Shown: positions 3,207-55,430 of the stretch, piece after piece | Layout: each line of letters starts with the position of its first letter | Numbering within the stretch: position 1 is the stretch's first letter | Assembly: GCA_016932255.1 (NCBI GenBank) | Contig: JAFGDE010000012.1 | Coordinates: 58,049-122,048 of the forward strand | Reading direction: 5' to 3' | Origin: Candidatus Saganbacteria bacterium | GTDB taxonomy: Bacteria > Margulisbacteria > WOR-1 > O2-12-FULL-45-9 | Length of the DNA stretch: 64,000 bases | Made by a program: the position numbers and the translations under genes | Notes under the pieces: model-generated | Seen by the model: only the letters and a program-made list of their open reading frames with translations | What the model was told of the DNA's origin: nothing | Databases searched by the model: none

Positions 3207-3227
3207 ACAAGGATATCGCTTCGCTGA

Positions 3228-3256
3228 TTGAGAAATTTCGCTTCATTAGCTATAAT
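3228..3256 (+). promoter_or_regulatory. Sigma70-like promoter for larB (TTGAGA-N17-TATAAT), ATG 7 nt downstream
   Basis: TTGAGA 3228-3233, 17-nt spacer, TATAAT 3251-3256, ATG 3264. The ORF-track TTG start at 3228 lies inside the promoter. Confidence 0.45.
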
Positions 3257-3263
3257 CACTCTG

Positions 3264-3980: not shown

Positions 3981-3984
3981 GGGC

Positions 3985-5136
3985 ATGAGGACCGCGTATT
4001 TTGACTGTTCATCCGGCATAGCCGGCAATATGATCATCGGAGCCCTGCTTGACGCGGGGCTCGATCCCGCTTATTTAAAAAAGGAACTCAACAAATTGCG
4101 CGTCTCGCATTACACACTGCGCATTACCAGGAAGAACAAGCTGGCCGGCACTTATTTCGACGTCGCCTTAAAGAGCAAAGAACCTCAGAGAAACCTGAAA
4201 GGCATCCTTAAGATCATCAGCGCGAGCAGATTAAGCAAAGACGTCAAAGAATTAAGCTCGCGTATATTCAAAAGGCTGGCCCAGGCTGAGGCAAAAGTCC
4301 ACGGCATCACGGTCAACAAAGTCCATTTCCACGAGGTCGGCGCAATTGACGCGATCGTTGACATTGTCGGCGCCTGCATCGGCCTGGAAAAGCTGGGCAT
4401 TGAGCAGGTCGTTTGCTCCCCGATTCCCTTTGGCACTGGCCGCATCAAGCATGCTCACGGCCTCCTGCCCATCCCCGCGCCGGCTACAGCCGAGCTGCTC
4501 AAGGGGGTGCCGATCTATCAGCTCGATGTCAAAGGCGAACTGACCACCCCAACCGGAGCAGCAATCATCACCACAATCACTGACCGGTTCGGCCTGGCGC
4601 CCAGGCTGGAGCTTGAGGCTTCTGGCAGCGGCCAGGGCTCAAAAAAGTACCCGGGATTGCCCAATACATTTAGAATCCACATCGGCGAAGCCCTTGACTT
4701 GTCGGCAACAGACGCGGTCGTTCAGATTGAGGCCAACATCGATGACATGGCCCCCGGCTCTTTTAACCAGGTGATCAAGGAGTTGATGAAAGCCGGCGCA
4801 CTCGACGCATACATGATACAGGTGATGATGAAGAAGCAAAGACAGGCCCTCCAACTGGTCGCCCTGTGCCGGCCGGAAGACCGTCACCTAATCATCACCC
4901 GGATATTTGAGCTGACCACGACCTTTGGGGTACGGGTCTTTCTGGTGCCAAGGGAAAAGCTGGCCCGGCATTTCAAGACCGTCAAGACAAAGTACGGCCA
5001 GGCTCGCGTCAAGATCGGCTCGCTTGGCTCAAGAAGAGTGACCGTTGCCCCTGAGTTTGAGGATTACAAAAGGCTGGCCAGGAAACACAACGTTCCGATC
5101 CAGCAAGTCTACAAGGAGATCAAGCGATGTTTATAG
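3985..5136 (+). CDS. larC: Nickel insertion protein LarC (DUF111)
   Basis: MRTAYFDCSSGIAGNM N-terminus typical of LarC and full-length DUF111 architecture. Start at internal ATG 3985, 4 nt after the larB stop. Confidence 0.8.
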   Translation: MRTAYFDCSSGIAGNMIIGALLDAGLDPAYLKKELNKLRVSHYTLRITRKNKLAGTYFDVALKSKEPQRNLKGILKIISASRLSKDVKELSSRIFKRLAQAEAKVHGITVNKVHFHEVGAIDAIVDIVGACIGLEKLGIEQVVCSPIPFGTGRIKHAHGLLPIPAPATAELLKGVPIYQLDVKGELTTPTGAAIITTITDRFGLAPRLELEASGSGQGSKKYPGLPNTFRIHIGEALDLSATDAVVQIEANIDDMAPGSFNQVIKELMKAGALDAYMIQVMMKKQRQALQLVALCRPEDRHLIITRIFELTTTFGVRVFLVPREKLARHFKTVKTKYGQARVKIGSLGSRRVTVAPEFEDYKRLARKHNVPIQQVYKEIKRCL

Positions 5137-5894
5137 ACACCCACGCGCACTTGACCTTCCCTGAGTACAAAGCCGATCTGCCGGAAGTGATCGAGCGGTC
5201 CAAACAGGCCAATGTAGAGGCCATCGTCAACATCGCGCTGGACGATGAAGCCCTGGCTGCTTCGCTGAGAATGGCTGAAGACTATCCTGGTTATGTTCTT
5301 AACGCTTACGGCCTGCACCCACACGACGCCTCGACCTGGACTGACGGCATCGCGCAAAGGACCAGAGAGCTGGCTAAGGCCAATAAGATCGTGGCCCTGG
5401 GCGAGATGGGCCTGGATTATCATTACAAGCTTTCTCCCATTGAAGAGCAAAAAGAAGTTTTCAGGAAACTGCTGCAGCTCTCCCAGGAGCTGGACCTGCC
5501 GGCCATTATCCATTCCCGCGAAGCTTCAAAGGACACTCTGACCATCCTACACGAAGAGAACCAGGGCAAGCTCAAAGGCGTGCTGCATTGTTTCGGCGGG
5601 GACATGGAATTGGGGCAACAGGCCCTGGATATGGGTTTGATGATCTCATTTACCGGCACCGTCACGTTCAAGAAAGCCGAAGCTGTCAGGCAGGCGGTGC
5701 AACAGATCCCAATCGAGCGGATCATGATCGAGACCGACTGCCCTTTTCTGGCGCCGCAGGTTTACCGCGGCAAAAGGAACGAGCCGGCTTATGTTGTGGA
5801 AGTGGCGGCCAAGATAGCCGAGGTCAAGGGTCTGTCGCTGGAAGATGTCGCAGCCCGAACAACGGCCAACGCCCGTAATTTCTTTGAGCTTTAA
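5127..5894 (+). CDS. TatD-family metal-dependent hydrolase/DNase (YcfH-like)
   Basis: 255 aa with FIDTHAHL and full TatD TIM-barrel signature. Overlaps the larC stop by 10 nt. Confidence 0.85.
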   Translation: MFIDTHAHLTFPEYKADLPEVIERSKQANVEAIVNIALDDEALAASLRMAEDYPGYVLNAYGLHPHDASTWTDGIAQRTRELAKANKIVALGEMGLDYHYKLSPIEEQKEVFRKLLQLSQELDLPAIIHSREASKDTLTILHEENQGKLKGVLHCFGGDMELGQQALDMGLMISFTGTVTFKKAEAVRQAVQQIPIERIMIETDCPFLAPQVYRGKRNEPAYVVEVAAKIAEVKGLSLEDVAARTTANARNFFEL

Positions 5895-6475
5895 GCTTTA
5901 CGCCGTTCGTAAACGTGGTTATTCCTGGCGTCCTTAAGCCGTGGATGCACCTGGTCGCGCTCAGAAACGATCAACTTGCCGCCGACCTCAGCCAGCGGCC
6001 ATTTGACCCCGACCTCAGGATCGTTCCAGATGATGGCTGCCTCATTCTCCTTGCTGTAGAAACCGGTGCATTTATAGTAGACGTGAGTATCTTCCTCAAG
6101 CGAGAGAAAGCCATGGGCGAATCCCGGAGGGAAATAGAGCATTTTCATGTTATCACCGGTCAAGACCTCGCCGTACCATTTGCCAAAAGTCGGCGAGCCT
6201 TTGCGTATATCAACGCCGACATCAAAGATCCGGCCCTTGATGCAGCGGACCAGTTTTCCCATGGGGCTGGGATTGTTCTGGTAATGCAAGCCTCTGAGAA
6301 CACCTTTTTTCGAGACACTGTGGTTATCCTGGACAATCGGATGAGTAAACCCATTCTGGATAAAATCCTTTAAATTATATGATTCCATGAAAAAACCGCG
6401 ATCGTCATTGAACGCTTTGGCTTCGATCAAGAACACTTCTTCGATCGGGGTTTTATTGAATTTAAAGATGCCCAT
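5891..6475 (-). CDS. rmlC: dTDP-4-dehydrorhamnose 3,5-epimerase
   Basis: 194 aa cupin with RmlC motifs (GLHYQ, FPPGFAHGF). Confidence 0.85.
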   Translation of the reverse strand: MGIFKFNKTPIEEVFLIEAKAFNDDRGFFMESYNLKDFIQNGFTHPIVQDNHSVSKKGVLRGLHYQNNPSPMGKLVRCIKGRIFDVGVDIRKGSPTFGKWYGEVLTGDNMKMLYFPPGFAHGFLSLEEDTHVYYKCTGFYSKENEAAIIWNDPEVGVKWPLAEVGGKLIVSERDQVHPRLKDARNNHVYERRKA

Positions 6476-6492
6476 TGAGATCCTCCTTTGAT

Positions 6493-7206
6493 CTATAAAC
6501 CGCCGTAACCGGTCAATTCCATCAGCCAGAACGATATTATCTTAAAATAATCCGCGGCCAGTAGCAAGCCCACGATCACCAGAAAGACGCCGGCGATCCT
6601 ATGTATCAGAGGCAGTCTATCCTGGAGTTGTTTGAGCAAAGAGATAAAATGGTCGACCGCCAGTGAAGCCAGGAAAAGCGGCAGTCCCAAGCCAAGTGAA
6701 AAGGCCACCAGCAGCAGCGCGCCCTGCCCGGCCATTCCGCTCTGCGCGGCCAGGGTCAGGATCCCGGCCAGGACCGGCCCGACACAGGGCGACCAGCCTA
6801 GGGCAAAGACCATCCCCACAATAAAAGTGCCCAGATATCCGGAAGGCTTGGCCGCCAGAGTCATTTTACGTTCAATGTCCAGGAAAGGCAGTTTAAGCAG
6901 ACCGATCAGATAAAAGCCCAGCAGGATAAGAAAACCACCGCCCAGCACCCGCAACAGGTCACACAGGTTGAAAAGCAGGTCACCCAGCAAGCCGGCCGCC
7001 GAACCCAGCAGGGTAAATATAAAAGTGAAGCCGGCGATGAACAACAGGGAATGGATAATGGTCTTTAAACGCACATTCTTGACCTCTTCGAACGAAAGGC
7101 CTGTGATATAGACCAGATAAGCCGGCACCAGCGGCAAAAAACAGGGAGAAAAGAAAGCCAGCACGCCGCCGCCAAATGCAATGAATAGACTGATGTTTTG
7201 ATTCAT
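6493..7206 (-). CDS. ccdA: Cytochrome c-type biogenesis / thiol-disulfide transporter CcdA (DsbD family)
   Basis: 237 aa, six TM segments, FSPCFLPLVPAYL and SPCVGPVL Cys motifs. Confidence 0.8.
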   Translation of the reverse strand: MNQNISLFIAFGGGVLAFFSPCFLPLVPAYLVYITGLSFEEVKNVRLKTIIHSLLFIAGFTFIFTLLGSAAGLLGDLLFNLCDLLRVLGGGFLILLGFYLIGLLKLPFLDIERKMTLAAKPSGYLGTFIVGMVFALGWSPCVGPVLAGILTLAAQSGMAGQGALLLVAFSLGLGLPLFLASLAVDHFISLLKQLQDRLPLIHRIAGVFLVIVGLLLAADYFKIISFWLMELTGYGGL

Positions 7207-7736: not shown

Positions 7737-8500
7737 TTGGCCACGGCAGGTTCAGCCGCAGCATCCCCTTTTTCATAATCAACGCGGGCCAGATTATCCT
7801 TGATCTCATAAGCGCCGGGCGCGTTCTTGACGCAAAGATTGCAGCCGATACAGCCAACCTTACAGGCTTTGCGCACCACAGCAACCTTATCCTTTGAATT
7901 ACAGCTGACCACAACGCGATTGGAACACGGGACCAGTTCAATTATTTTTCTGGGACAGGCATGGACGCACAGGCCGCAGGCCGTACATTTCAATTCATCA
8001 ACATGCGGCAGGCCGTCTTCCCCCATTTTGATCGCGTTAAAAGGACAGACAGCCACACAGTCGCCAAAGCCGAGACAGCCATAAGTGCAGGCCTTATACC
8101 CTCCGGCGACCAGTTCAGCAGCCGCGCAGGTCTTGACCCCTTGATAATCAGCCCGGGCCGCGGCCAACTCTTTAGTACCGCCGCATTTGACCACCGCGCG
8201 CTTCTTGATCCCCGCCTCTGCTGTGATGCCCAGGATCTCAGCGATCTCATCCATTACTACGGATCCGCCGGGCGGGCAATTCAATCCGGTCAGGTCGCCC
8301 TGGGCCACGATCTTTTCCGCCAGGTCATGGCAGCCAGCCTGGCCGCAGGCACCGCAGTTAAGCCCGGGCAAGGCCGCGCTTACAGCCAGGACCTTGGGGT
8401 CCTCTTCGACATGGAGCTTCTCCGAAGCCACGGCCAGCACACTGGCAAAGAACAGTCCCAGTCCGCCCATTGTTACTAAAGCTATGAGAAATAAATTCAT
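7706..8500 (-). CDS. rnfB: Rnf complex subunit B (polyferredoxin)
   Basis: N-terminal TM helix, CGACGQAGC cluster, multiple 4Fe-4S ferredoxin CxxCxxCxxxCP motifs. Confidence 0.85.
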   Translation of the reverse strand: MNLFLIALVTMGGLGLFFASVLAVASEKLHVEEDPKVLAVSAALPGLNCGACGQAGCHDLAEKIVAQGDLTGLNCPPGGSVVMDEIAEILGITAEAGIKKRAVVKCGGTKELAAARADYQGVKTCAAAELVAGGYKACTYGCLGFGDCVAVCPFNAIKMGEDGLPHVDELKCTACGLCVHACPRKIIELVPCSNRVVVSCNSKDKVAVVRKACKVGCIGCNLCVKNAPGAYEIKDNLARVDYEKGDAAAEPAVAKCPTKCIVKL

Positions 8501-8541
8501 CCCACTCTCTCCATCCCTCTATCTCCCCATCTCTCCATCTG

Positions 8542-9120
8542 TTAACCCGATATAAGCCCCGCAAAGCCCATAAAAGCCAGGGCCAGTAATCCCGCAATGA
8601 TCAGCGTTATCGGTGCACCTTTAAAATGCTCCGGTACCGGCGCCAGGTCAAGTTCCTCGCGGATGCCGGCCATGATGCAAAGCGCCAAAGTAAAACCCAC
8701 CCCGGCGGCCAGACCAAAAGTCACGCTTTGAAGAAAATTATATTCTCTTAAAGCTGCTAAAAGCGCCAGGCCCAGGATAGCGCAGTTAGTGGTGATCAGC
8801 GGTAAAAATATGCCCAGCGAGCGGTAAAGCGCCGGCGAGGTCTTTTTGATGAACATTTCCACGAACTGCACCAGCGAAGCAATAACTATAATGAAAGAGA
8901 CATACTGCAAGAATGGCAGGCCAAAGGGAACAAGGATGAGATTATTGATCAACCAGGTGACCATAGCGGCCAGCACCATGACAAAGGTCGTGGCCAAGCC
9001 CATGCTGAGCGCTTTTTCCAGTTTATTGGACACGCCCAGGAAGGGACAGATGCCCAAAAACATGCTCAGAACAAAGTTATTGACGATCGCCGCAGAGATA
9101 AAAATCAATAACAGGTCCAT
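8542..9120 (-). CDS. rnfA: Rnf complex subunit A
   Basis: 192-aa polytopic membrane protein with full-length RnfA/NqrE-family similarity. Confidence 0.9.
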
Positions 9121-9121
9121 G

Positions 9122-9778
9122 TTAGTTCACCTCCGCCTGCGAGTCAACAGGCAGGCAAGCAGGCGCGGCCTGCTGTTGACCGGTCTTTTCTTTGAGATAG
9201 TTCAGCAGGCCGATCAGCAGGCCCAGAGTAATAAAAGCGCCGCCCGGCAGGATCATGATGACCCATGGTTCGAAATTGACCAGGCCGAACAGCGAGCCCG
9301 TACCAAAGATCTCCCTGATCGTGCCCAGCACGGTCAGAGCAACAACAAAACCAGAGCCCATACCCAGCGCATCGACAAAGGACTTCGCCGGGTCGTTCTT
9401 TGAAGCAAAGACTTCGGCCCGGCCCAGGATGATACAGTTGACCACGATCAAGGGCACGAACGGTCCTAAGGCCTTGGAAATATCAGGAAAGATGCCTTTG
9501 AGGAACAGGTCAGCCATGGTCACAAAAGTGGCAATGACCACGATAAATGAAGCGATCCTGACCTGGTCAGGGATAAGTTTCCTGATCAATGAGACGATCG
9601 TACTGGAACAGACCAGAACAAAGGTCGTGGCTAATCCCATGGACAGGCCGTTGATGGTGCTGGTCGTTACGGCCAGTGTTGGGCACATGCCCAGCAACTG
9701 CCTGAAGACCGGGTTCTCGTCCCAGAGGCCTTTGAGGTATTCCGTAAGATATCCGCGTTTTACTTTGCTTGCTGCCAT
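9122..9778 (-). CDS. rnfE: Rnf complex subunit E
   Basis: 218 aa, RnfE/NqrD family ([10 protein letters not shown]...). Confidence 0.9.
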
Positions 9779-10308
9779 TGCTGCACCGTTTTATTAATGA
9801 TGTTCACTACCGCCCGGCTGGAGATGGTCGCGCCTGTGATCGCCTCGATCTGGTTTAACTTGCTGGGCTTGGCGCTTTTGACATATTCGATCGGCGGCTT
9901 GCTGGCCAGGCCCTTGAACTGGGCGGTAAAAGCGCCTTCCGCGATCTTAGCGCCCAGGCCGGGTGTTTCAACCTGCTCCAGCACGATCATGCCAGTGAAC
10001 TTGGAAAAGTCGGCATTAACGCCGACCATCATCTTGATCACGCCCTGATAACCATTGCCCTGACAAAGAATAGCTGTACCGGTCTTTTCTCCCCGTTGAC
10101 CATAGCATTCAAAATACGTCAGGTCTTTGTCCGATATCTGCTTGTATTTGACCGTGCCGGGTACGACCTGAAAGACCGCAGCGTCGTTGGCCTTGATCTG
10201 GTTGACCTTGATCTTGGGCTCGGCCCATTGATACATCAGCGAGAGAATGCCGCCGGAGACCAGGCCGATCACGCTCAGGACCACGATCATTTTTGTCAGT
10301 TTGTTCAC
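9760..10308 (-). CDS. rnfG: Rnf complex subunit G (FMN-binding)
   Basis: Start moved to GTG 10308 (VNKLTKMIVVLSV...) overlapping the rnfD TGA (GTGA). The ORF-track N-terminal 60 aa overlap rnfD and are probably not translated. Confidence 0.75.
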   Translation of the reverse strand: MNKLTKMIVVLSVIGLVSGGILSLMYQWAEPKIKVNQIKANDAAVFQVVPGTVKYKQISDKDLTYFECYGQRGEKTGTAILCQGNGYQGVIKMMVGVNADFSKFTGMIVLEQVETPGLGAKIAEGAFTAQFKGLASKPPIEYVKSAKPSKLNQIEAITGATISSRAVVNIINKTVQQWQQAK

Positions 10309-11273
10309 TTGACCGGCCTCCCAAAACGTTTTTGCGGATAGCCCAGGATGCGCGGCCTGGTATAGCAGTTGATCAGCGGCACAAAGGCGTTCATGATCAG
10401 AATCGAATACATGACGCCTTCGGGCAGTCCGGAAAAAAGCCGGATGACCACGACCAGAACACCAGCAGCTGCGCCAAAGACCCACATACCTTTAGGCGTG
10501 AGCGGCGAAGTGACCAGGTCGGTCGCCATATAGAGCGCGCCCAGCATCAAGCCGCCCGCCAGCAAATGGAACAGCGGATCAGGATATTTTGTCGGATCGA
10601 TCAACCAGAACAAGCCGCCCAGGACAGCCACACTGCCCAGATAGCTGGCCGGAATGCGCCAGTTGATCAGGCCTTTGAACATAAAGAAAAGCGCGGGTAA
10701 AAGCAACAGTAAAGCCGAGGTTTCGCCGATACAGCCGCTGACATTGCCAAAGAACAGCTTGCTGTAGACGGTTGTCTGCTGTTGGAACTTCATCAGGGCC
10801 AGCGGCGTGGCAGAAGAGACCGCCTCAACGCCGCGCCAGAACATCGGCGCAGCCCAGGTAGTCATCTGGACAGGAAAAGCCGCGGCCAGAAAGGCCCGGC
10901 CGACCAAAGCGGGATTAAAAATATTATAGCCTAGGCCGCCGAACAGCATCTTGCCCACAGCAATGGCAAAGACAGCACCCAAGGCTGCCTGCCACCAGGG
11001 CATGACCGGAGAAAGCGTTAAGGCCAGCAGCAGACCGGTCAGCGCGGCACTGCCGTCGCTGATGGTCGGTTCGACTTTCATTATCTTATTGACCGCCAGC
11101 TCGGTCAGCACAGCCGCGATAACGCTGGACAGGATGACCAGCAGGGCCGGCCAGCCGAACAGGACGATACCAGCAATGGTCGCCGGCAGCAGGCCAATGA
11201 TAACGGTCCGCATCATCAGCGGCACTGAGCCAAAGTCATTACTGTGCGGAGATGAAGTTATCAGAAAGCTCAT
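10305..11273 (-). CDS. rnfD: Rnf complex subunit D
   Basis: 322-aa membrane subunit, RnfD/NqrB family. Confidence 0.9.
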   Translation of the reverse strand: MSFLITSSPHSNDFGSVPLMMRTVIIGLLPATIAGIVLFGWPALLVILSSVIAAVLTELAVNKIMKVEPTISDGSAALTGLLLALTLSPVMPWWQAALGAVFAIAVGKMLFGGLGYNIFNPALVGRAFLAAAFPVQMTTWAAPMFWRGVEAVSSATPLALMKFQQQTTVYSKLFFGNVSGCIGETSALLLLLPALFFMFKGLINWRIPASYLGSVAVLGGLFWLIDPTKYPDPLFHLLAGGLMLGALYMATDLVTSPLTPKGMWVFGAAAGVLVVVIRLFSGLPEGVMYSILIMNAFVPLINCYTRPRILGYPQKRFGRPVK

Positions 11274-12583
11274 TTCATTTGCCTCAGCTTATACTTTGCC
11301 AGTCTGACCCACTGGACGATCGGGATCTTAGCCGGACAAACATATGCGCAGCAGCCGCATTCAATGCAGTCCTGGCCGCCCCACTCTTCGAACTCGCCGT
11401 ACTTGCCGTTATCAGCAAAGGCCGCCAGGCGGCTCGGGACAAGGTACATCGGGCAGTTGCTGACACAGCGTCCGCATTTGACGCAGGGATATATCTTTTC
11501 TTCCTTAATGTCGCGCTGGCGCAGGACCAGGATACAGCTGGTCGCTTTGACGACCGGTATGTCGACCGAGGTCTGGGCCACGCCCATCATCGGCCCGCCC
11601 ATGATGATCTTGGAGGCATCCTCGCACAGGCCGCCGCACTGGTCGATCACTTCCTTAAAACTGGTGCCGATGCGCACCAAGAGGTTCTTGGGCTCTTTAA
11701 TGCCCGGCCCGGTCACGGTCAGGACCCGGCTGACCAACGGCTGGCCGCGGGTCAATGCCTCAAAGATGGCAACAGCAGTTCCGACATTGACGACCACCAC
11801 ACCGATATCGAGCGGCAGGCCTCTGGCCGGCACCTCGCGATCCAGTGCCGCCTTGATCAGCATCTTCTCCCCGCCCTGGGGATATTTCGTTTCAAGCACG
11901 ACAACATCAACGATAGCTTCAGAATGCTTGCGCGCCACTGATTTAAGCCGTTCTATCGCGTCAGGCTTATTGTCCTCGATACCGACAACGACTTTTTCCG
12001 CACCGGCGGCCCTGGCCGCGAGCAGCGCCCCCTGAACGATCTCATCAGCTTTTTCCACCATGACCCGGTGGTCAGCTGTGATATATGGCTCGCACTCGCA
12101 GCCGTTGACCAGGATCGTATAGATCTTCTTGCCCTCAGGCGGGGCCAGTTTAACATGGGTCGGGAAAGCCGCCCCACCCAGACCGACAATACCTGCCTCA
12201 CGCACGGCCTGCCTGATCTCTTCAGGCCTCAAAGCATCGGTCTTTCTGCTGTCAACGGTCCTGGCCTTGGGCTCTTCTTCCTCCCCAGCTTCGATGACCA
12301 CAGCAAGGATCTCTGTGCCGCAGGGATGCGGCATTTTATCTATCTTGGTGACCTTGCCGGAAATAGAGGCATGGACCGGCGCGGAAATGAACTTAGAGGA
12401 ATCAGCTATTTTCTGTCCCTGGACGACCTGGTCGCCCACTTTGACCAGCGGCTCACAGGTGGCCCCGGTGTGCTGATGAAGCGGGATAATGACCTTTTTC
12501 GGGGCCGGCAGCTCCCTAATGGCCTTCCCCTGGGTTGCGGTCTTATTGTATTTTAGATGTATTCCCTGAGCGAAAGTTTTCAT
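11270..12583 (-). CDS. rnfC: Rnf complex subunit C (NADH-binding, Fe-S)
   Basis: 437 aa. C-terminal CxxCxxCxxxCP pair (CVKCGRCVSNCP, CIECGCCAYVCP) and RnfC N-terminal domain. Confidence 0.9.
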   Translation of the reverse strand: MKTFAQGIHLKYNKTATQGKAIRELPAPKKVIIPLHQHTGATCEPLVKVGDQVVQGQKIADSSKFISAPVHASISGKVTKIDKMPHPCGTEILAVVIEAGEEEEPKARTVDSRKTDALRPEEIRQAVREAGIVGLGGAAFPTHVKLAPPEGKKIYTILVNGCECEPYITADHRVMVEKADEIVQGALLAARAAGAEKVVVGIEDNKPDAIERLKSVARKHSEAIVDVVVLETKYPQGGEKMLIKAALDREVPARGLPLDIGVVVVNVGTAVAIFEALTRGQPLVSRVLTVTGPGIKEPKNLLVRIGTSFKEVIDQCGGLCEDASKIIMGGPMMGVAQTSVDIPVVKATSCILVLRQRDIKEEKIYPCVKCGRCVSNCPMYLVPSRLAAFADNGKYGEFEEWGGQDCIECGCCAYVCPAKIPIVQWVRLAKYKLRQMK

Positions 12584-12654
12584 TTTTGTCCCTTGTCAAA
12601 TGCTCGATAATTTGGTACGGGGCAAAACAAAACCGAGTTATTATAACATAAAAT

Positions 12655-13086
12655 TTAAGCTGGGAAAATGACCTTAATTACCTTCGCTCTCAATGATCCG
12701 GCCTGCTGGATGCTCCGGTCATACAAGCTGATGATGAAATAGGTCAAGGCAGCTGAACCCAAGCCGCAGACAATGCCGCCCCATTCCTGCCAGACCGCCA
12801 GACCCAGGATACGCGCTAAGGTCGAGCCGATCACATAACCAAGCAGCAGACCGAGCACGGGGACGATAAAAACGATAAAAGATGCCTTGACTATCACTTG
12901 TGAAGGGATTTCTATCTCAACAATATCGCCTTGTTTTGCTCCGAGATCGTTAACAGCTTCAATGCCGACCAGTCCCTCTCCGACATTATGACATAAACGG
13001 CATTTGTCGCAGGCTGCGCTGCGCTGGAAAGCGATCAAAACAATATTGCCCCGGACAGGTCCGGCAACGACCCCCTGTTCCCTCAT
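12655..13086 (-). CDS. rseC: RseC/MucC-family protein (SoxR-reducing system component)
   Basis: 143 aa. N-terminal CDKCRLCHNVGEG Cys cluster and two C-terminal TM helices as in E. coli RseC. Directly upstream of rnfC. Confidence 0.65.
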   Translation of the reverse strand: MREQGVVAGPVRGNIVLIAFQRSAACDKCRLCHNVGEGLVGIEAVNDLGAKQGDIVEIEIPSQVIVKASFIVFIVPVLGLLLGYVIGSTLARILGLAVWQEWGGIVCGLGSAALTYFIISLYDRSIQQAGSLRAKVIKVIFPA

Positions 13087-13457
13087 TAACCGCTCTTTTT
13101 GGCCAGGACCTTCTTGATACGCTCAACGAGATCATCCGGATCGAATGGCTTGGTGATATAATCTGACGCGCCAACCTTCAGGCCCATATCAACATCCTTC
13201 TGCTCTCGCTTGACCGAGACCATAATGACCGGGATATCTTTGTATGTCGAAGCCTTGAGCTCGGCACAAAACTCATACCCGCTCTTGCCCGGCATCATGA
13301 TATCGAGCAGGATCAAGGTCGGTGCGCTTAACCTGACCTTTTCCCAGGCCGCATTGGCATTAGCAGCAGCTTCGACCTCATAGCCAAAAGGCCTGAGGAT
13401 ATCCTCCATCAGGATCGATATCTCAGGTGCGTCATCGACCACCAGGATCTTGGTCAT
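13086..13457 (-). CDS. Stand-alone response-regulator receiver domain (CheY-like)
   Basis: 123 aa: VDD acidic pocket, phospho-acceptor D in LILLDIMMP, K near C-terminus. ATGA overlap with rseC. Confidence 0.8.
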   Translation of the reverse strand: MTKILVVDDAPEISILMEDILRPFGYEVEAAANANAAWEKVRLSAPTLILLDIMMPGKSGYEFCAELKASTYKDIPVIMVSVKREQKDVDMGLKVGASDYITKPFDPDDLVERIKKVLAKKSG

Positions 13458-14901: not shown

Positions 14902-16341
14902 TTATTTCTTTTCCAGTTCCATGATGTTCTGGAGTTTTTTATAAAGCTGGAGCGCCTGAACATTGCCGGGATCTATCTTCAGCACTTCCTGGACCTCTTT
15001 CATTGCCTCTGTATAGTTCTCCTCAGCGATATACTTCCTGGCCAGACCTAAGTGATTGGCCGCTTCCTGTTTAACCTGTTCGGCCACTTCCTTTTCCAGG
15101 GCTTCCTGGGATTCCCGGATCATTTTAACTGCTTCAGGATGGGACGGAACCACCTTGAGCGCCTTATTAAATTCAGCAATGGCTTCCAGATACTGTTTTT
15201 CAGCAAAGAATTTATTGCCGTTATCGATAAAGACCTGGGCTTCTTCCTGCTTCTCAGCTTTAATATCTTTCTCGACCGTGCCTTCTGCCTTTCCAGACAG
15301 CGCGTTCTCAGCTTTGGTCAACAATGCCCGGGCGTCGGCATCATTGGGGTCCAGCTCCAGTACGTTCTTGGCCGCGACGATCGCCTCAGAGAACCTGGCT
15401 TTATCATAATAAGCCTTAGCCATGGCCAGATATTCCAGTTTGATGGCCTGACGGTCATCCCTGGTGCCGAAAGAATAGCTGAAACTGATCTGATGGGCCG
15501 AGCCAAGATCGTCATGGGCCACATAAGCATAATCCAGGCCATAATTGCCGGAACTGATACCTACTCCGGCCCTCATCCGGCCGGCAGCTGAACCATATCT
15601 AAGAGCGACCAGACCGCTGAGCAAATATTCCAGACCATAATTGAGCGAAGCAGTTGACCCGGCACTGCTGACATAGTCAATCGCCAGGGAAAGCTTGTTC
15701 TCAAGCAGCCGGTTAACCGAAGCTAATCCTAAACGATATGTCTGGGGCAAGGGGGTATTTTCCGAGATGAACTTCAGCGGCGTGCCAACGTTCTGCACGG
15801 CCAGGCCAAAGGTCAGGTTCGGATTGAATTCGTAGAGCAAACCGGCGTCAAGGGCTGTGGCAACGGCTGATGAATTCTCCAAATTTTCAGTGATGTTCTT
15901 GGCCCCGATCCCCCAAGCAAAACGCTCATTGACCCTGCGACCCCAGGCAATTGCCAGGCCGGTGTCGGTCGCTTTGATCGTGGAGGTCGGCGCGCCGGTC
16001 GAGTCATAGCCCTGGATGTTGCCTGAATCAAGGATAGAATAGCTGCCGCCAAAAACACCATTATCGGTCGGATACGCCAGATCAAGGTATTGGTGCTTGA
16101 CATCAACGAACCACTGGTTATACATGTAGCCGATCTGAGTGAATTCTGTCCTAGACAGGCCGGCAGGGTTCCAGAAAACAGCTGACGATCCTTCTGCCAA
16201 AGCCACATAGGCGTCCCCCATGGCGATCGCCCGGGCGCCGCCGCCCAAAAGGAGGAACTGGCCGCCGGCAGTGCCAGCACCGGCCCAGGCAAGATCGATC
16301 AGGAGTAATAGCGCGCAACCTGTTATAAATATTTTTTTCAT
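14902..16341 (-). CDS. PorV/PorQ-like outer-membrane beta-barrel fused to C-terminal TPR repeats
   Basis: Signal peptide then GARAIAMGDAYVALAEGSSAVFWNPAGL N-terminal motif typical of PorV/PorQ/UPF0164 barrels. C-terminal ~180 aa with three TPR-like repeats. Confidence 0.5.
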   Translation of the reverse strand: MKKIFITGCALLLLIDLAWAGAGTAGGQFLLLGGGARAIAMGDAYVALAEGSSAVFWNPAGLSRTEFTQIGYMYNQWFVDVKHQYLDLAYPTDNGVFGGSYSILDSGNIQGYDSTGAPTSTIKATDTGLAIAWGRRVNERFAWGIGAKNITENLENSSAVATALDAGLLYEFNPNLTFGLAVQNVGTPLKFISENTPLPQTYRLGLASVNRLLENKLSLAIDYVSSAGSTASLNYGLEYLLSGLVALRYGSAAGRMRAGVGISSGNYGLDYAYVAHDDLGSAHQISFSYSFGTRDDRQAIKLEYLAMAKAYYDKARFSEAIVAAKNVLELDPNDADARALLTKAENALSGKAEGTVEKDIKAEKQEEAQVFIDNGNKFFAEKQYLEAIAEFNKALKVVPSHPEAVKMIRESQEALEKEVAEQVKQEAANHLGLARKYIAEENYTEAMKEVQEVLKIDPGNVQALQLYKKLQNIMELEKK

Positions 16342-16679
16342 TTGTTTATGATCAACCGTCCTTTCGCTTCCTGGCTCTGGCTCTTGATCAGGTAGAGGTA
16401 GATCCCGGAAACGACATCTTCCCCAGCTTGGTTCTTCAGGTCCCAGCTGGCCTGTCCGTCGCCGTCGGTCTCGCTGATCCTGCGCACCAGCGAGCCGTCC
16501 AGCATCGTGATCTCGATGGTGCAGACAGCCGCCAGGTCGATAAAAACGACTTCGTTCGATCCCTGTCCCATCACGTACGGGTCAGGGAAGACCTGGCTGG
16601 TGGTCACGGTCTCGGTACAACCCGACAGCAGCAGACCGGCGATAAACAATAGACCAATTGTTATAATTAATGGTCTCAT
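16338..16679 (-). CDS. Mini-lipoprotein consisting essentially of a T9SS type-A C-terminal sorting domain (FlgD-Ig-like)
   Basis: 113 aa; lipobox LLLSGC; C-terminus ...GDGQASWDLKNQAGEDVVSGIYLYLIKSQSQEAKGRLIINK matches the TIGR04183-like tail and the adhesin tail. 4-nt overlaps on both sides. Confidence 0.5.
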   Translation of the reverse strand: MRPLIITIGLLFIAGLLLSGCTETVTTSQVFPDPYVMGQGSNEVVFIDLAAVCTIEITMLDGSLVRRISETDGDGQASWDLKNQAGEDVVSGIYLYLIKSQSQEAKGRLIINK

Positions 16680-19600
16680 TTGATCACCAGCAATTTACCT
16701 CTCTTGATATCATTGCCGCTCTTGACCACATAAAGATACAGGCCGCTGGCCAGAGCCTCGCCGCTGTCATTCTGCACGTTCCAGCTGGCCACGCCGTCGC
16801 CGTCGGTCTCATTGATCGTCTTGACCAGATCGCCCCGCAGGGTAAAGATCTTGATCGTGCTGACCGAACCCAGGTTGGTAAAGGTCACTGTGGTATGGTT
16901 ATCAGGTGGATTCGGCTTGAATGGGTTCGGGTAGGCATAGGCAGCTGAAACATCCTCAAAAGCCGTGGCCATCAGGGTATAGACCGAGAAATGGCTGACA
17001 ACAGCTGAAACACAGTTCTGGTCAGCATCAACGATCGAGTTGGGCATCCTGATCCACAACCCGTGATCCTCATCCAGGCGATAGATCTTGAGCGCCTTTT
17101 CCATGATCCGCGGGCTGGTGTTATCAACATAACCGTCATCATTCTCGTCGTCGTAATAAAGACTGATTGTGACCGGTGCCGCAAAATCAGAGGTTATCCG
17201 GACATCATCCGTGCCGTAAGCGTTGATCTCGCTGATCGATGAAGTAAAGGGATATTTAAAAGGATCGTTCTCCAGCAGGACCTTGGCATTGGCCTCGGTG
17301 ATCTTGGCCGGGTCGATCTCCCTGGGATCATTGATCGGGTTGCGGTTGATGTCAATGTAAGCGTCATTGCTGACGGCTCCCAATGACAGGACCACTTTGG
17401 TCCGGCCGTCAGCGCTGAAGAAGATATTGCTGATCTGGCGGTCCAACACCGTCCTGAAAGTCCAGGTAAGGTCGAGCGTCAGGTCGTTGCCGTCAAAGTC
17501 TTTGACCGGGCCTGACAGTCTGACACGGTAGGTATAACCCTTTGACAGAGTAGCGGCCGGAGTGAAAGTGAGGACACGGTTCCTTGCCCAGCTGAAAGCG
17601 CCGCTGACCGGCGTATAAACGAAATTGCCCGAGTTGTCGTAAACAGCTTCCATGGAAAAGACCGCCTGGACTTCCAGTGTGCTCATGTCCCTGTCAAAGG
17701 TTACGCTGACCACGGCTTCGGGCGAGACATTGTCAGCTCCGGCGGACGGGAAATACGAGACAACGCCTTCAGGGACCGGCGGCAGGCCGGTAGTATTGGC
17801 AGCGTCGCTCAGGTCGGACTGGCTGGTCGTCTGGTCCGCCGCGTCGGAAGTATTGCGGGACTTTACTTTGAAATAATAATCCGAGACCGGATCGCTTAAG
17901 CCCGTGACAGTGATCGTCCCCCAGTCAAAGGTCGGCTGCCAGGCCGCACTATCGCCGAGAGTGCCGTCGGTCTGGACATATTTATTATGCGAAGAAACGT
18001 AAATGGAATATTCGAGGCCGGCGACCTCGGCCGGATATTTATTTATCTTGACATCGGCAGTTGTCGCTGTCCCATTGCTCACCGTCGGCACCGCCGGAGT
18101 ATACGGCTTTATATACTGTTTTACTGTGCTGGGCGAAGTGTTCTCATTGTCGCCGATATTGCCGAAATCATCGACCGCGGTGCACTTGACCTGGCTGACA
18201 TAGTCATTGCCGTCAAGTGTCGCTCCAACGGCCGTGGCCTGCGGCGATGGCGTGGCGGTATTGGCCTCCCCGGTGGTCGGGCTGCCGTACGCGCCGCCAT
18301 TGAGCGCCAGGTCAAACGTATTGGTATCAGGATTGATCTCGGTAAAGGCCGCGCTAAGCGTTACCGTTGTCTGCCCGGCCCGGGGCTGTGTCTGAATATC
18401 TGTCGCGCTGGCCACGGCAGGATCAAGATTGTCAACATTAAAGCCTGTGGGCGAAACTCCGTACGTGCTGTTGCTGCTGCCGTCATCGACCTGGAACCTG
18501 ATCTGCACGTTCTGACTGTACGCGTCATCGATATATTCCTTGGAATTGTCCCAGACCAGTGTATGCAGAGTGCCGCTCATATCGGAAGCCGAGCTTAAAC
18601 CCGTCTTGGTCCCGGCCACATCTGCGTCAAGGATATTGTTCCAGCCGCCGCCATTGACCTGATATTGCACACTGCCGCTGACGACCGAACAATCGTCAAG
18701 GTCAAGGTCCCGGATCCTGAAAGTAAAGGTTATCCGCCCGCTCCTGTCAGTGGCCTGGACCAGTACCGGCAGCTGGTTCTGCGTTGAACCGTCGTTCAAT
18801 GCCGGAGCTGTGTTGGCGGAAGAAGCGCCGCCGGACAAACTGCTTTCCGGATTATCGCCGTTGGGGTTGCGGGATTTGGTGCTGAAAACATAATTACTCA
18901 CCGGAGCCGATAGTCCCGTGACCGTCTTGGTGCCCCAAGCCGCGATGGTCTGCCAGACCGCGGCGCCGCCCAATGTCCCACCGGCCTGGACATATTGACC
19001 GCCACTCTCACGGATGGCGTATTCCAGGCCGCTGGCTTCACTGGCATTCTTGTTAACAGTAACATTGACCGTTGTGACAGTTGGAGTATCGACCGTCGGC
19101 GCCGGCGGCGTATACGGTGTCACGCCATCATTTGCCGGCGCCAGTGTTTCATTGATGCCGACATTGCCAAAGTCATCAACAGCTACGCAGCGAACTTTGC
19201 TGATATAATCATTGCCATCCAGGGTTGCGCCTGCGGCCACAGCCTGGGCTGACGGATCAGCCGTGTTGCTTTGCCCGGCAGTGCCGGCTCCGTAAGTTGG
19301 ACCGTTAAGCGCCAAATAAAATGTATTGGTATTCGGATTGGATTCAGTGAACGAACAGTCCAGGATAACCGTTGTACCGCCCGCCTGAGGTCGGCTGGTA
19401 ATATCCGTGGCAGCCAGGGCCGCCGGATCAAGATTGTCAACATTAAAGCCTGAAGGCGACGTGCCGTCAGCACTGGTCAAGGCGCCGTCGCTGATATTAA
19501 AGCGCACCTGGACGTTAGTACTGACCGCGTCATCGATATGTTCTTTTGAGTTATCCCAGACCAGTGTATGAAGTGTGCCGGAATAATCAGTTGCCGAGCT

Positions 19601-20410
19601 TAAATTTGTTTTTGTGCCGGTAATATCACCATCGGCGATCGGGTTCCAGCCGCCGCCGTTGACCTGGTATTCAAAACTGCCGTTGACCACGCCGCAGGAA
19701 TCAGCCTCGCCATCCTTGATGCGGAAAGTTATCGCGATTCTACCGGTCCCGTCAGTATATTGTGATAATGCTGGCAGAACATTATCAGAAGAGCCATTAT
19801 TCAAGATCGGGGCAGTATTGAGAGGAGTATAATCAACTGTTGCATAAACCTGCGTTACATAAGGATTCCTTGTAACATCATTAGTATAAACGCCGTAAGC
19901 TTGTAAGGCATTTGAACCAACACCATTGATATCATCCACCGCCCAAGCCAGTCCAGTCTTTGGATTTGTCGCATAGTCATAAGTTCTGGTAGCCCAACTG
20001 TTGGCTGTCGGTGTCACTCCAGGATCGACGGTATCATAATTATTCCCGCCGACCAGAAGCGCTGATCTGATATTTGAAGTCTGACCACCCTGTTTCCTTT
20101 CATGCCTATATGTAAGCCTTAAGAAATTGATCGTTGAGCCAGCCGGCACGCTAAAAGCGGGAAAACTGAACAGGTTTCGTCCCGTTGCTGTAGCCCAGAT
20201 ATAACTGCCATCATCATCAGCCACAGCTTCGTTCACTTTATCATAGTAACTGCCCGTACTGCCTCCCGGGGGATTAATATAATCAATCCAAGTTCCAGTA
20301 TGAGAATGATCGCCAGTAGGCCGCTGGGTCTGCGTAACTGAAAGTGAAGGTAAAGCCCAAACACAGAGAATTACAAATACAATCGTTATATGAATAGCCA
20401 GCCGGCTCAT
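16676..20410 (-). CDS. Giant secreted surface protein/adhesin: signal peptide, two ~337-aa tandem repeat modules (Ig/FN3-like), SbsA-type Ig domain, T9SS type-A C-terminal sorting domain
   Basis: 1244 aa. Repeat 1 (NTAPILNNGSSDNVLP...) and repeat 2 (NTAPALNDGSTQNQLP...) are ~60% identical. C-terminus YAYPNPFKPNPPDNHTTVTFTNLGSVSTIKIFTLRGDLVKTI...SGLYLYVVKSGNDIKRGKLLVIK is a classical Por_Secre_tail pattern. Confidence 0.8.
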   Translation of the reverse strand: MSRLAIHITIVFVILCVWALPSLSVTQTQRPTGDHSHTGTWIDYINPPGGSTGSYYDKVNEAVADDDGSYIWATATGRNLFSFPAFSVPAGSTINFLRLTYRHERKQGGQTSNIRSALLVGGNNYDTVDPGVTPTANSWATRTYDYATNPKTGLAWAVDDINGVGSNALQAYGVYTNDVTRNPYVTQVYATVDYTPLNTAPILNNGSSDNVLPALSQYTDGTGRIAITFRIKDGEADSCGVVNGSFEYQVNGGGWNPIADGDITGTKTNLSSATDYSGTLHTLVWDNSKEHIDDAVSTNVQVRFNISDGALTSADGTSPSGFNVDNLDPAALAATDITSRPQAGGTTVILDCSFTESNPNTNTFYLALNGPTYGAGTAGQSNTADPSAQAVAAGATLDGNDYISKVRCVAVDDFGNVGINETLAPANDGVTPYTPPAPTVDTPTVTTVNVTVNKNASEASGLEYAIRESGGQYVQAGGTLGGAAVWQTIAAWGTKTVTGLSAPVSNYVFSTKSRNPNGDNPESSLSGGASSANTAPALNDGSTQNQLPVLVQATDRSGRITFTFRIRDLDLDDCSVVSGSVQYQVNGGGWNNILDADVAGTKTGLSSASDMSGTLHTLVWDNSKEYIDDAYSQNVQIRFQVDDGSSNSTYGVSPTGFNVDNLDPAVASATDIQTQPRAGQTTVTLSAAFTEINPDTNTFDLALNGGAYGSPTTGEANTATPSPQATAVGATLDGNDYVSQVKCTAVDDFGNIGDNENTSPSTVKQYIKPYTPAVPTVSNGTATTADVKINKYPAEVAGLEYSIYVSSHNKYVQTDGTLGDSAAWQPTFDWGTITVTGLSDPVSDYYFKVKSRNTSDAADQTTSQSDLSDAANTTGLPPVPEGVVSYFPSAGADNVSPEAVVSVTFDRDMSTLEVQAVFSMEAVYDNSGNFVYTPVSGAFSWARNRVLTFTPAATLSKGYTYRVRLSGPVKDFDGNDLTLDLTWTFRTVLDRQISNIFFSADGRTKVVLSLGAVSNDAYIDINRNPINDPREIDPAKITEANAKVLLENDPFKYPFTSSISEINAYGTDDVRITSDFAAPVTISLYYDDENDDGYVDNTSPRIMEKALKIYRLDEDHGLWIRMPNSIVDADQNCVSAVVSHFSVYTLMATAFEDVSAAYAYPNPFKPNPPDNHTTVTFTNLGSVSTIKIFTLRGDLVKTINETDGDGVASWNVQNDSGEALASGLYLYVVKSGNDIKRGKLLVIK

Positions 20411-20450
20411 TTACTTGATATTTTATGCTTATAATAGCGATGTTTCAAGC
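20411..20450 (-). promoter_or_regulatory. Sigma70-like promoter of the adhesin operon (TTGAAA-N17-TAAAAT), start codon 9 nt after the -10
   Basis: Minus strand reads gcTTGAAAcatcgctattataagcaTAAAATatcaagtaaATG. Confidence 0.35.
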
Positions 20451-20478: not shown

Positions 20479-20832
20479 TCAGCGGCCTATCAATAAAGCC
20501 TTATCAGGAACTGTCAGCCGTTCATTTTCACTGACCACCTGGCTGGCGTGCAGCCAGGCATTGGCCGTTGAGATAATCAGGGTTGACAGGGCTACTGCTT
20601 GCCAGCGCATGCCCTGGCCCGGGAACAGCATCTCGGACAGCCGGCGTTCAGCAAAGCTGCTCCAGAGCGCGGCGAACGGCAGGGTCTGCCAGAAAGTGAT
20701 GTCAAATTCCTGCAGGAAATTGACCTGCCCGGCTTCGCTGGAAACAGCCGTTGCCGGCAGCGTTGGCGCTGTGGTCAGCAGCAGCCAGGCGGCTAGCCAC
20801 AGGCTCAGCAGGCTTTTCCCCCTGCTGCTCAT
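20479..20832 (-). CDS. Hypothetical small secreted protein
   Basis: 117 aa with N-terminal signal peptide. 4-nt overlap with the upstream membrane-protein gene. No recognisable domain. Confidence 0.4.
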   Translation of the reverse strand: MSSRGKSLLSLWLAAWLLLTTAPTLPATAVSSEAGQVNFLQEFDITFWQTLPFAALWSSFAERRLSEMLFPGQGMRWQAVALSTLIISTANAWLHASQVVSENERLTVPDKALLIGR

Positions 20833-21926
20833 CGTTCTCTGACCTTCCTGACCAGCCTGCCGTAATAGACCGCCGCGGCCATTTCATCCGCGACAGCCTC
20901 AAGCATCTTCTCCAGGTCATGGGTGATATTCAGGCCTTCGCCATGGCTGAACAAAATAAAAAAGCCGACCGTCTTGCGGCGGAAGACCAGTTTTCTGACC
21001 AGTTCTTTTTGGATGAATTCCTTGCCCAAAAAGATCCCCTGAACATTATCTAAGACGTCGCTGATTTCTTTGATCTTCTTGCTGCGTAAAGCGGATAGGA
21101 ATTCTTCCGGAACGCCCATGTTCGCGCCGACCCTGACCACCTTCTTTTTATCCATCAACACGATCAAACCCGAATGCAGTCCCAGGACCGCCAGCATCTT
21201 TTCCAGCGCATCTTTAAGCATGACATCGAGATTAAACACGTGGGTAAGTGTCCAAAATATCGAAGTAAAAGCAGAATATTTTCGCTCAACGTCCCTTTCC
21301 CTGTTCAAGGCTGACTCAAGGTTGAGCCGTTCCTTCCCCAGGTACTGGATAATAAAGACCTCGCACAGGGAGATACAAAAGAGCACGATAGGCAGTACTA
21401 TCCCGTTCACATGGCACAGTTTAGGCAGGTATTGCTGGTCGATTATTAATCCGCCGTCTATTTGGACCAGCGGCAGGACACCCAAAGAGACCAGTATCAA
21501 CATGCTTTCATAAAGACCTATGGTTAAGAGAGCCCAGATCAAGGGGCCATAAGCTGAATACGGCGACCAAAAAGGCACAAGCGCAATAAACAGAACATAA
21601 GCGATAACATAAGGGCTTTGCGGCCCGCCGCTGAAATAATTAAATAACGTCATAACGATCAGATCAACAATGCCCAGGAACGTCGAGAGGAAAATTATCT
21701 CGTTAAGCGAGATCTTCTGAGTGCGCAAATAATAATAAGTTAACAAGGAATAAAAAAGGATGCCTAAGCCCAGCAGCATCAGCACAAAAACGTTCTCTGA
21801 GAGCCTGACACAAAAAATGTTCTGGATGACCAGGATAACAAAAAAAGAACCGCCGAGCAACAGACGGAAATTATTCATCCAGTAGACCCTGTCGATAATC
21901 TCTGTCTTGGTGTACCTGGGAAGCAT
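20829..21926 (-). CDS. Polytopic membrane protein with C-terminal cytoplasmic GAF-like domain
   Basis: 365 aa, about 8 predicted TM helices, then ~150 aa resembling the C-terminal half of a GAF domain. No kinase or output domain. Confidence 0.55.
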   Translation of the reverse strand: MLPRYTKTEIIDRVYWMNNFRLLLGGSFFVILVIQNIFCVRLSENVFVLMLLGLGILFYSLLTYYYLRTQKISLNEIIFLSTFLGIVDLIVMTLFNYFSGGPQSPYVIAYVLFIALVPFWSPYSAYGPLIWALLTIGLYESMLILVSLGVLPLVQIDGGLIIDQQYLPKLCHVNGIVLPIVLFCISLCEVFIIQYLGKERLNLESALNRERDVERKYSAFTSIFWTLTHVFNLDVMLKDALEKMLAVLGLHSGLIVLMDKKKVVRVGANMGVPEEFLSALRSKKIKEISDVLDNVQGIFLGKEFIQKELVRKLVFRRKTVGFFILFSHGEGLNITHDLEKMLEAVADEMAAAVYYGRLVRKVRER

Positions 21927-52494: not shown

Positions 52495-52495
52495 C

Positions 52496-53707: not shown

Positions 53708-53718
53708 CTGGCCTCCGC

Positions 53719-55418: not shown

Positions 55419-55430
55419 TGACCCCTCCCT

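Follow-up and report, generated by a model that had tools for sequence, protein, structure and literature searches.

A predicted lipoprotein with a single PorZ-like C-terminal domain is encoded in overlap with a PorV/PorQ-family barrel gene beside giant adhesins in Margulisiibacteriota

The T9SS (type IX secretion system) is a machine of about 20 proteins in which the recognition of C-terminal domains (CTDs) by PorV/PorQ barrels, and the retention of CTDs that stay uncleaved, are still being worked out. Here we analyse a 64-kb stretch of a Candidatus Saganbacteria genome (contig JAFGDE010000012.1; "the window" below means this whole stretch of 64,000 nucleotides (nt)), in which a small gene lies between the genes for a giant adhesin and for a PorV/PorQ-family outer-membrane barrel. 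Its product, which we call the mini, has 113 amino acids (aa) and is a predicted lipoprotein with a single CTD-like domain. In Porphyromonas gingivalis, PorU and PorZ keep their CTDs uncleaved, and PorZ joins PorQ in a subcomplex (PMC10947112, PMC11285876); the solved translocon shows CTDs bound to PorV at its extracellular loops (PMC10994853); and in Flavobacterium, cargo genes adjoin the genes for their cognate shuttles (PMC12618676). T9SS genes have been reported as confined to the Fibrobacteres-Chlorobi-Bacteroidetes (FCB) phyla (PMC11285876).

The window locus resembles the PorZ-PorQ and PorU-PorV pairs of P. gingivalis in that a 14-strand barrel of the PorV/PorQ family is partnered with a protein that keeps its CTD, a partnership that in the case of the mini is proposed. 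PorZ (776 aa) and PorU (1158 aa), however, contain functional domains of large size, and no linkage of their genes to porQ or porV is described, whereas the mini is a CTD alone, predicted to be lipidated and translationally coupled to its barrel, which carries a tetratricopeptide repeat (TPR) domain. Unlike the P. gingivalis attachment complex, the mini comes from a host that is not among the FCB phyla, and the window showed neither a sortase nor a translocon. PorA of P. gingivalis (PGN_0123) is also a small CTD protein, and it is counted among the components of the T9SS, not among its effectors. It is a binding partner of PorV, an uncleaved form of it exists, and its CTD suffices to signal to the sensor kinase PorY (PMC7712824, PMC12152298). 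PorA, the smallest CTD component so far described, has 246 aa, a FimH-like domain at its N-terminus and no lipobox; by this description it differs from the mini, and it was ruled out as an already known CTD-only component. In the cargo-shuttle pairs of Flavobacterium johnsoniae an adhesin gene likewise adjoins a barrel gene, and the barrel recognises the CTD and sets its final location (PMC12618676); those pairs, however, use PorP/SprF barrels and type B CTDs, depend on SprA and have no described CTD-only third partner. The mini shares the immunoglobulin (Ig)-like beta-sandwich of T9SS type A CTDs and FlgD Ig-like domains, with the motifs GxY and G-K-[LIV]-x-[IV]-x-K/R, but is without a passenger protein. 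Its fold is similar to that of the DUF3244 proteins of Bacteroides (4g5a and 3sd2, ∼90-100 residues; Foldseek E 9.5e-5 and 2e-3), although the identity is 15-17% and the mini has no Pfam DUF3244 match; we know of no link between DUF3244 proteins and PorV-like genes.

The host lineage, Saganbacteria/Margulisiibacteriota, falls in the Cyanobacteriota/Melainabacteria group; the organism is a diderm, since the window encodes TolC and LptC/LptA homologues. None of the T9SS core components (SprA/Sov, PorK/L/M/N, PorT and the PorU sortase) was found among those proteins of the window, itself 64 kb of the genome, that were scanned against NCBIfam or Pfam. Because the host lies outside the FCB phyla, calling the mini a T9SS component presumes a system that is not demonstrated here. 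The literature searched held nothing relevant on T9SS or PorV in Margulisbacteria, Saganbacteria or Elusimicrobia and described no CTD-only T9SS component, PorA being the nearest. On this last point the initial annotation of the window, made from the sequence by a model, had said the same, and the statement stands for the literature, but short CTD-only proteins as such are not rare (see below). The separate parts of the cassette of mini, barrel and adhesin are of known kinds and have already been annotated automatically; what the literature searched does not describe is the conserved, translationally coupled pair of a CTD-only protein and a PorQ-like barrel beside giant adhesins outside the FCB phyla.

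The mini gene is real, conserved and under purifying selection. A protein search covering 5.8 billion proteins gave eight close relatives (103-114 aa, 52-99% identity) annotated as Candidatus Saganbacteria or Margulisiibacteriota. Orthologues of 103-117 aa and 51-99% identity lie in five other loci of Margulisiibacteriota/Saganbacteria type, and a scan of a genome collection for mini loci yielded one locus, L004, on a 783-kb Margulisiibacteriota contig. The window, L001, L002/L003, L004, L005 and L011 share one five-gene order, here called Margulis-type: adhesin (Big_5 and CTD), mini, PorV/PorQ barrel-TPR protein, membrane AAA_22 ATPase with a zinc ribbon, and response regulator; the neighbour proteins in these loci are 47-81% identical to their counterparts in the window. 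Over eight mini sequences of 52-70% identity, 34 positions are invariant, including Gly20-Cys21, FPDPY, CTIE, DGDG, W79-D80, SGIY and G107, and the reading frame is intact at every locus. For the closest pair (window and L005) the non-synonymous divergence (dN) is 0.22 and the synonymous divergence (dS) 1.7, which is saturated, giving a dN/dS of ∼0.13; for the same pair the barrel gene has a dN/dS of 0.05.

Conservation extends to the position of the gene. In all six Margulis-type loci (window, L001, L002, L004, L005 and L011), the gene immediately downstream of the mini encodes a PorV/PorQ-family protein. A profile of the minis was also searched against 1.84 billion cluster representatives, with 10,529 matches at E <= 1e-3. 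The best 150 of these 10,529 comprise giant proteins in which the domain is repeated in tandem, many large proteins that end in a single copy, and ∼30 short proteins of 104-147 aa, most of which have a plausible signal peptide and a single domain. The signal peptide is of the ordinary kind in most of the short relatives, a few having a lipobox (e.g. P0017, P0022, P0023 and P0034). A second search with a diverse alignment found 87 mostly short proteins, some from named Elusimicrobiota, Calditrichia and KSB1, and annotation pipelines already label such short CTD-only proteins "T9SS type A sorting domain-containing protein".

Eight neighbourhoods of short proteins were read with local hidden Markov models (HMMs) built from alignments. 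L011 proved to be Margulis-type, and L013 and L014 were set aside as doubtful because of a differing C-terminal end; the L014 candidate has no signal peptide and overlaps its upstream gene, and in L013 the next gene encodes a Plug-domain protein rather than PorV. In the five clear distant loci the mini is directly upstream of a PorV/PorQ gene in all but L010. L006 and L008 each have a mini and then a barrel with an ATGA overlap, followed by a 3495-aa fn3/Big_5 protein downstream in L006 and by a TPR protein in L008, while L009 (Elusimicrobiota) and L012 each have a giant fn3 adhesin, a mini and a barrel-TPR fusion. The adjacency of mini and barrel genes therefore holds in 10 of 11 clear loci, with the ATGA stop/start overlap at 8 of the 11 junctions examined. 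The initial annotation had proposed looking for CTD-only open reading frames (ORFs) next to PorV-like genes in other genomes, and such pairs are thus present.

The window mini has what would be a textbook lipoprotein signal peptide. Its N-terminus, MRPLIITIGLLFIAGLLLSGC, has a charged n-region (Arg2), then a hydrophobic core and then the lipobox L-S-G-C, which satisfies the pattern [LVI][ASTVI][GAS]C; the layout of the whole sequence is MRPLIITIGLLFIAGLLLSG/C-TETVTTSQV-FPDPY...GIYLYLIKSQSQEAKGRLIINK, and Gly20-Cys21 is invariant across all Margulis-type orthologues. The NCBI record for the gene (P0001, 103 aa, 99% match) starts 10 codons inside the 113-aa form (16650-16679) and so drops the charged n-region; the alignment of orthologues supports the ATG at 16679 as the likelier start. 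The initial annotation had placed the mini between the adhesin and the PorV-like gene with overlaps of 4 nt, and both overlaps are there, with the stop of the 1244-aa adhesin ORF at 16676-16679 and with the PorV/PorQ-family ORF at 16338-16341 (ATGA). A Shine-Dalgarno-like GGTGAT for the mini sits within the final codons of the adhesin (..L-V-I-K/R-stop; window 16680-16700, minus strand). The same arrangement is found at the adhesin-mini junctions of L001, L004 and L005, and L011 has GGTCAT. Because this site lies inside the last codons of the adhesin, the conserved terminus of the CTD is predicted to double as the ribosome-binding site of the mini.

The description of the protein as a stand-alone lipobox lipoprotein consisting of a CTD only agrees with the ORF, with the lipobox (LLSGC) and with the T9SS model TIGR04183, which matches residues 30-112 over model positions 1-72 of 72 (24.6 bits against a curated cutoff of 23, E 1.8e-5). 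This pass is marginal and model-dependent, since PF18962 gives only 14.7 bits against a gathering score of 27. The Pfam families FlgD_ig, CHU_C and Por_Secre_tail all match below their gathering scores; PF13860 (FlgD Ig-like) scores 18.7 bits against 27 on the window mini, precomputed PF13860 matches are present on several orthologues, and FlgD structures match in fold. Of the PorZ model NF052228, in turn, the C-terminal part (80 positions) matches residues 22-103 with E 2.2e-8. The assignment of the mini to the type A tails in the initial annotation is therefore upheld by TIGR04183, but the best match is a PorZ-type CTD, and the FlgD-Ig family of Pfam falls below its gathering score.

In an AlphaFold2 (AF2) model the mini is a seven-strand beta-sandwich with its strands between residues 35 and 111. 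The mean predicted local distance difference test score (pLDDT) is 79.7 overall, with block means of 77-94 from residue 31 on, and ∼10 low-confidence residues follow the 21-residue signal peptide. Foldseek places PorZ and PorU among the top matches of this model and also finds the CTDs of RgpB, RemZ and NucA, FlgD, and the CTDs that are bound in SprA-PorV complexes. A profile built from 20 minis matches the PorZ CTD (5m11) with E 1.8e-9; the corresponding values are 0.013 for PorU and, for the type A substrates solved in the translocon, 0.12 (RemZ) and 0.27 (NucA). A Cys occupies the same position in the PorZ CTD and the mini (AGCSVKI versus AVCTIEI). The PorU and PorZ CTDs have an extra beta-hairpin, beta8-beta9, after the fifth strand (PMC11285876); mini residues 80-91 (DLKNQAGEDVVS), a 12-residue connection in the seven-strand model that may or may not form a hairpin, align with PorZ NARGADGNRVAS. 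In sequence and model the mini is closest to a PorZ-type uncleaved CTD rather than to a generic type A tail. A type A sorting domain follows a passenger, whose export it directs, whereas here ∼10 residues separate the predicted lipidated Cys21 from the domain, so that the CTD itself must be the working part of the protein.

The mini is also a paralogue of the tail of its neighbour. It aligns with the last 99 residues of the adhesin with 40% identity (E 3e-23), and each giant protein upstream of a mini has the same CTD domain at its end. A tree of the CTDs separates the six Margulis-type minis from the six adhesin CTDs, each set being a clade, and the duplication therefore predates these lineages and has been kept in Margulis-type loci. 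Identity within the minis (49-59%) is lower than within the adhesin tails (67-73%). The minis carry the signatures FPDPY and CTIE and the adhesin CTDs PNPF and TIK, so that a charge difference, Glu at mini residue 56 (CTIE) versus Lys in the adhesin CTD (TIK), is fixed in 6/6 Margulis-type loci; the clear minis outside this group retain Lys or Arg at the position of Glu56. In L009 from Elusimicrobiota (1797-7031) the mini is 69% identical to its own adhesin CTD, against 40-55% in Margulis-type loci, which suggests an independent or more recent duplication, or gene conversion. That a cargo tail has been duplicated repeatedly, or kept for a long time as a duplicate, beside a barrel gene suggests that selection has favoured an unattached copy of what the barrel recognises. 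The adhesin of the window also has an internal tandem duplication of ∼330 residues (∼200-530 and ∼540-870), and a stretch of the L002 orthologue aligns to both copies.

The barrel partner scores 141 bits on PorV_fam (NF033709, cutoff 90) and higher on PorQ (96) than on PorV (53), while falling short of the equivalog cutoffs for PorV, PorQ and PorV2. In its AF2 model (mean pLDDT 86.7) a helical segment at the N-terminus is followed by 14 strands (residues 69-290) and then by TPR helices (294-478), and its best matches in the PDB are PorV chains of Flavobacterium translocon structures (8gl6_F, E 3.5e-15; 6h3i_F, E 5.2e-14), followed by FadL. A disulfide between the barrel and the conserved Cys53 of the mini is ruled out, as the mature barrel has no cysteine. 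Five proteins of ∼380 aa and one of 356 aa that end in a copy of the mini domain were scanned for natural fusions, and none of them carries a PorV-like barrel. A second, distant PorV/PorQ-like outer-membrane protein of 421 aa is encoded in the window (27094-28359, plus strand); on PorV_fam it reaches 41 bits, short of the cutoff, and on the local barrel HMM 60 bits, and its gene is adjoined by neither a CTD-only gene nor an adhesin.

The initial annotation had suggested that the mini might be a decoy, a PorV-binding adaptor or a mimic of a cleaved tag. Among these and other ideas, that of a stable partner of the barrel, as in PorZ-PorQ, fits the evidence best, and we give about even confidence to the proposal that the mini is a stable CTD subunit, i.e. 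a stoichiometric partner of the PorV/PorQ-like barrel in the manner of PorZ on PorQ, probably at the site that receives the adhesin CTD. The mini would be a small lipoprotein of the outer membrane, with nothing in its mature part but a PorZ-like non-cleaved CTD, and its synthesis would keep step with that of the 14-strand barrel from the next gene downstream. Its CTD would bind the barrel stably, as PorQ holds the PorZ CTD and PorV the PorU CTD in the Porphyromonas attachment complex, and the barrel-TPR protein would serve the giant CTD-bearing adhesin of the upstream gene as its dedicated carrier or anchor. Since the mini has no passenger and is a paralogue of the adhesin tail, it probably uses the adhesin-CTD site; occupying it, the mini might act as a resident placeholder or competitor that sets the amount of barrel free for the adhesin. 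We infer the physical binding of mini and barrel, the outer-membrane face, the competition with the adhesin and the independence from a SprA-type translocon; for the complex the evidence is genetic linkage.

Several observations weigh against this proposal. If the lipoprotein sits on the periplasmic leaflet, its tether of 10 residues is too short to bring the domain to the extracellular loops, the place where PorV binds CTDs in the known system. In L010 a giant protein and a mini occur with the barrel absent nearby. Conversely, a barrel-only relative, P0253 (L015-L017, 4314-9826), is a 301-aa barrel encoded between a CTD-bearing fn3 adhesin and a separate TPR protein, with no mini present, and a barrel can therefore function in its absence; the core module is thus cargo, barrel and TPR, with the mini an accessory of some lineages. 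The lipobox is missing from the clear non-Margulis relatives whose neighbourhoods were read, which have ordinary signal peptides, and the lipid anchor is thus lineage-specific and outside the conserved core. Giant proteins of 1100-3000 aa (e.g. P0009-P0018) carry 8-15 internal tandem copies of the mini domain, which shows that such a domain is not only a recognition tag but also a structural repeat. Finally, the neighbourhoods read number about a dozen in all and were picked for long contigs.

Among the alternatives, the mini could be a lipid-anchored receptor whose Ig domain pairs directly with the adhesin CTD and tethers the adhesin to the outer membrane by the lipid of the mini, the barrel being uninvolved in the contact. 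In favour of this, the domains are paralogues whose genes follow each other with an overlap of 4 nt, and the swap of Glu for Lys seen in every Margulis-type locus could suit a heterodimer. The clear non-Margulis minis, however, have no lipid anchor and carry Lys or Arg at the swap position, and in L006 and L008 the tight conserved junction is that of mini to barrel, the adhesin not being immediately upstream; we consider the receptor unlikely. It is quite unlikely that the mini is ordinary minimal cargo, i.e. the smallest substrate, exported and displayed or shed like the adhesin and with no role in the machinery: although it has all the sequence features of a cargo tail, and many unrelated short proteins consisting of a signal peptide and a CTD exist, removal or burial of the CTD would leave only a lipidated decapeptide. 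Moreover, the minis form a separate clade with invariant motifs of their own, and a position and overlap with the barrel gene that are kept across phyla would not be expected of a random small cargo.

A free CTD might also serve as a periplasmic signalling ligand, like PorA, reporting the state of export or anchoring to a regulator, with the response regulator of the cassette in the circuit. The CTD of PorA binds PorY and switches on T9SS genes, and by itself it activates PorXY-SigP, also in a form anchored in the inner membrane (PMC12152298). The Margulis-type cassette ends with a conserved response regulator, L001 has in addition a histidine kinase and another regulator, and the L008 pair is adjoined by a divergent kinase and three regulators. 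Against this, the cassette in the window encodes no sensor kinase, L006, L009 and L012 have the mini-barrel pair without a regulator nearby, and the strict translational coupling is to the barrel and not to the regulator, which leaves the signalling ligand very unlikely in our view. Least credible by far is a functionless relic of a frameshifted or duplicated adhesin tail. The identity of the mini to the adjacent CTD, and the closeness of the L009 mini to its own adhesin CTD, which indicates that recent duplication or gene conversion does occur, would fit such a relic; the mini, however, has its own intact signal peptide and lipobox, a constant length of 103-117 aa, 34 invariant positions and the low dN/dS given above, and the Margulis mini clade predates the divergence of the lineages. 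The frameshift remnant, which the initial annotation had named as one of two findings that would overturn it, is ruled out by this conservation and by the intact frame.

A broader reading can tentatively be added, although we lean against it at present: non-FCB lineages (Margulisiibacteriota/Saganbacteria, Elusimicrobiota and others) might carry a self-contained surface-anchoring module that needs no T9SS translocon, in which a PorQ-like barrel-TPR protein holds giant adhesins by a PorZ-type CTD, and the CTD-only subunit, lipidated in Margulisiibacteriota, is a resident ligand that gates or tunes adhesin loading. Were this true, the module would be related to the T9SS attachment complex, either as a simpler version or as something like its ancestor. 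The presence of such genes beside giant adhesins in phyla not credited with T9SS raises the question of whether anchoring of CTDs by barrels is older or more widespread than the translocon, and the answer would change how "T9SS sorting domain" annotations in candidate phyla are read. As a natural two-gene pair of a ∼270-residue barrel and a 90-residue bare CTD, the locus also offers a minimal system for structural and binding studies.

Table 1. Features of the mini-lipoprotein cassette and its flanks, in window coordinates
Feature	Coordinates	Strand	Basis or remark
Single-domain response regulator, last conserved gene of the cassette	13086..13457	-	Conserved at the end of the Margulis-type cassette
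Membrane-anchored AAA_22 ATPase (ExeA/GspA-like, TIGR03015-like) with zinc ribbon and N-terminal periplasmic TPR-like segment	13454..14887	-	Cassette ATPase
PorV/PorQ-family barrel-TPR gene, start overlapping the mini stop (ATGA)	14902..16341	-	HMM and AF2
C-terminal TPR domain of the barrel protein, residues 294-478	14908-15462	-	HMM and AF2
14-strand outer-membrane barrel part, residues 25-291	15469-16269	-	HMM and AF2
Mini-lipoprotein gene, 113 aa, ATG start	16338..16679	-	Predicted signal peptide with lipobox, 10-residue tether, single PorZ-like/type A CTD Ig domain
Mini CTD-like seven-strand beta-sandwich, residues 30-113	16341..16592	-	Motifs FPDPY, CTIE, DGDG, W79-D80, SGIY, G107, terminal K
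Mini signal peptide and lipobox (predicted), residues 1-21, LLSG/C	16617..16679	-	Cys21 codon at 16617-16619
Adhesin CTD, residues 1146-1244	16679-16975	-	40% identical to mini
Adhesin-like cargo, 1244 aa: signal peptide, internally duplicated module, Big_5, C-terminal CTD	16676..20410	-	Domain matches
Sigma-70-like promoter match, TTGAAA-17-TAAAAT	20420..20448	-	Consensus match, just upstream of adhesin start
Two genes without family match: 365-aa multi-pass membrane protein and 117-aa secreted/membrane protein	20479..21926	-	Upstream of adhesin

The remaining genes of the cassette and its flanks are listed in Table 1. The AAA_22 ATPase is conserved only in the Margulis-type cassette; it also has one transmembrane helix and a Pro/Thr-rich linker, and in L011 it is split into two ORFs (7809-9232). 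Both of the genes without a family match that precede the adhesin are found at the same place in L011 (48% and 51% identity for the 365-aa and 117-aa proteins, respectively), and that for the 117-aa protein also in L001; the 365-aa protein has a soluble C-terminal part. A scan of the region for promoters and terminators gave no more matches than shuffled sequence, and only the site upstream of the adhesin is suggestive by its position.

In three loci the stretch after the cassette, at 8542-13086 in the window (minus strand), 11065-14555 in L001 and 9588-10837 in L011, begins with a gene similar to RseC/MucC that directly follows the cassette. In the window and L001 this gene is followed by an Rnf operon (RnfC/D/G/E/A). 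Elsewhere in the window (51301-56750, minus strand) lies an operon of efflux or lipoprotein-release type, with a TolC-like channel, an adaptor of RND (resistance-nodulation-division)/MacA type, an ABC ATPase and two MacB/LolC-like permeases, which is consistent with a diderm envelope.

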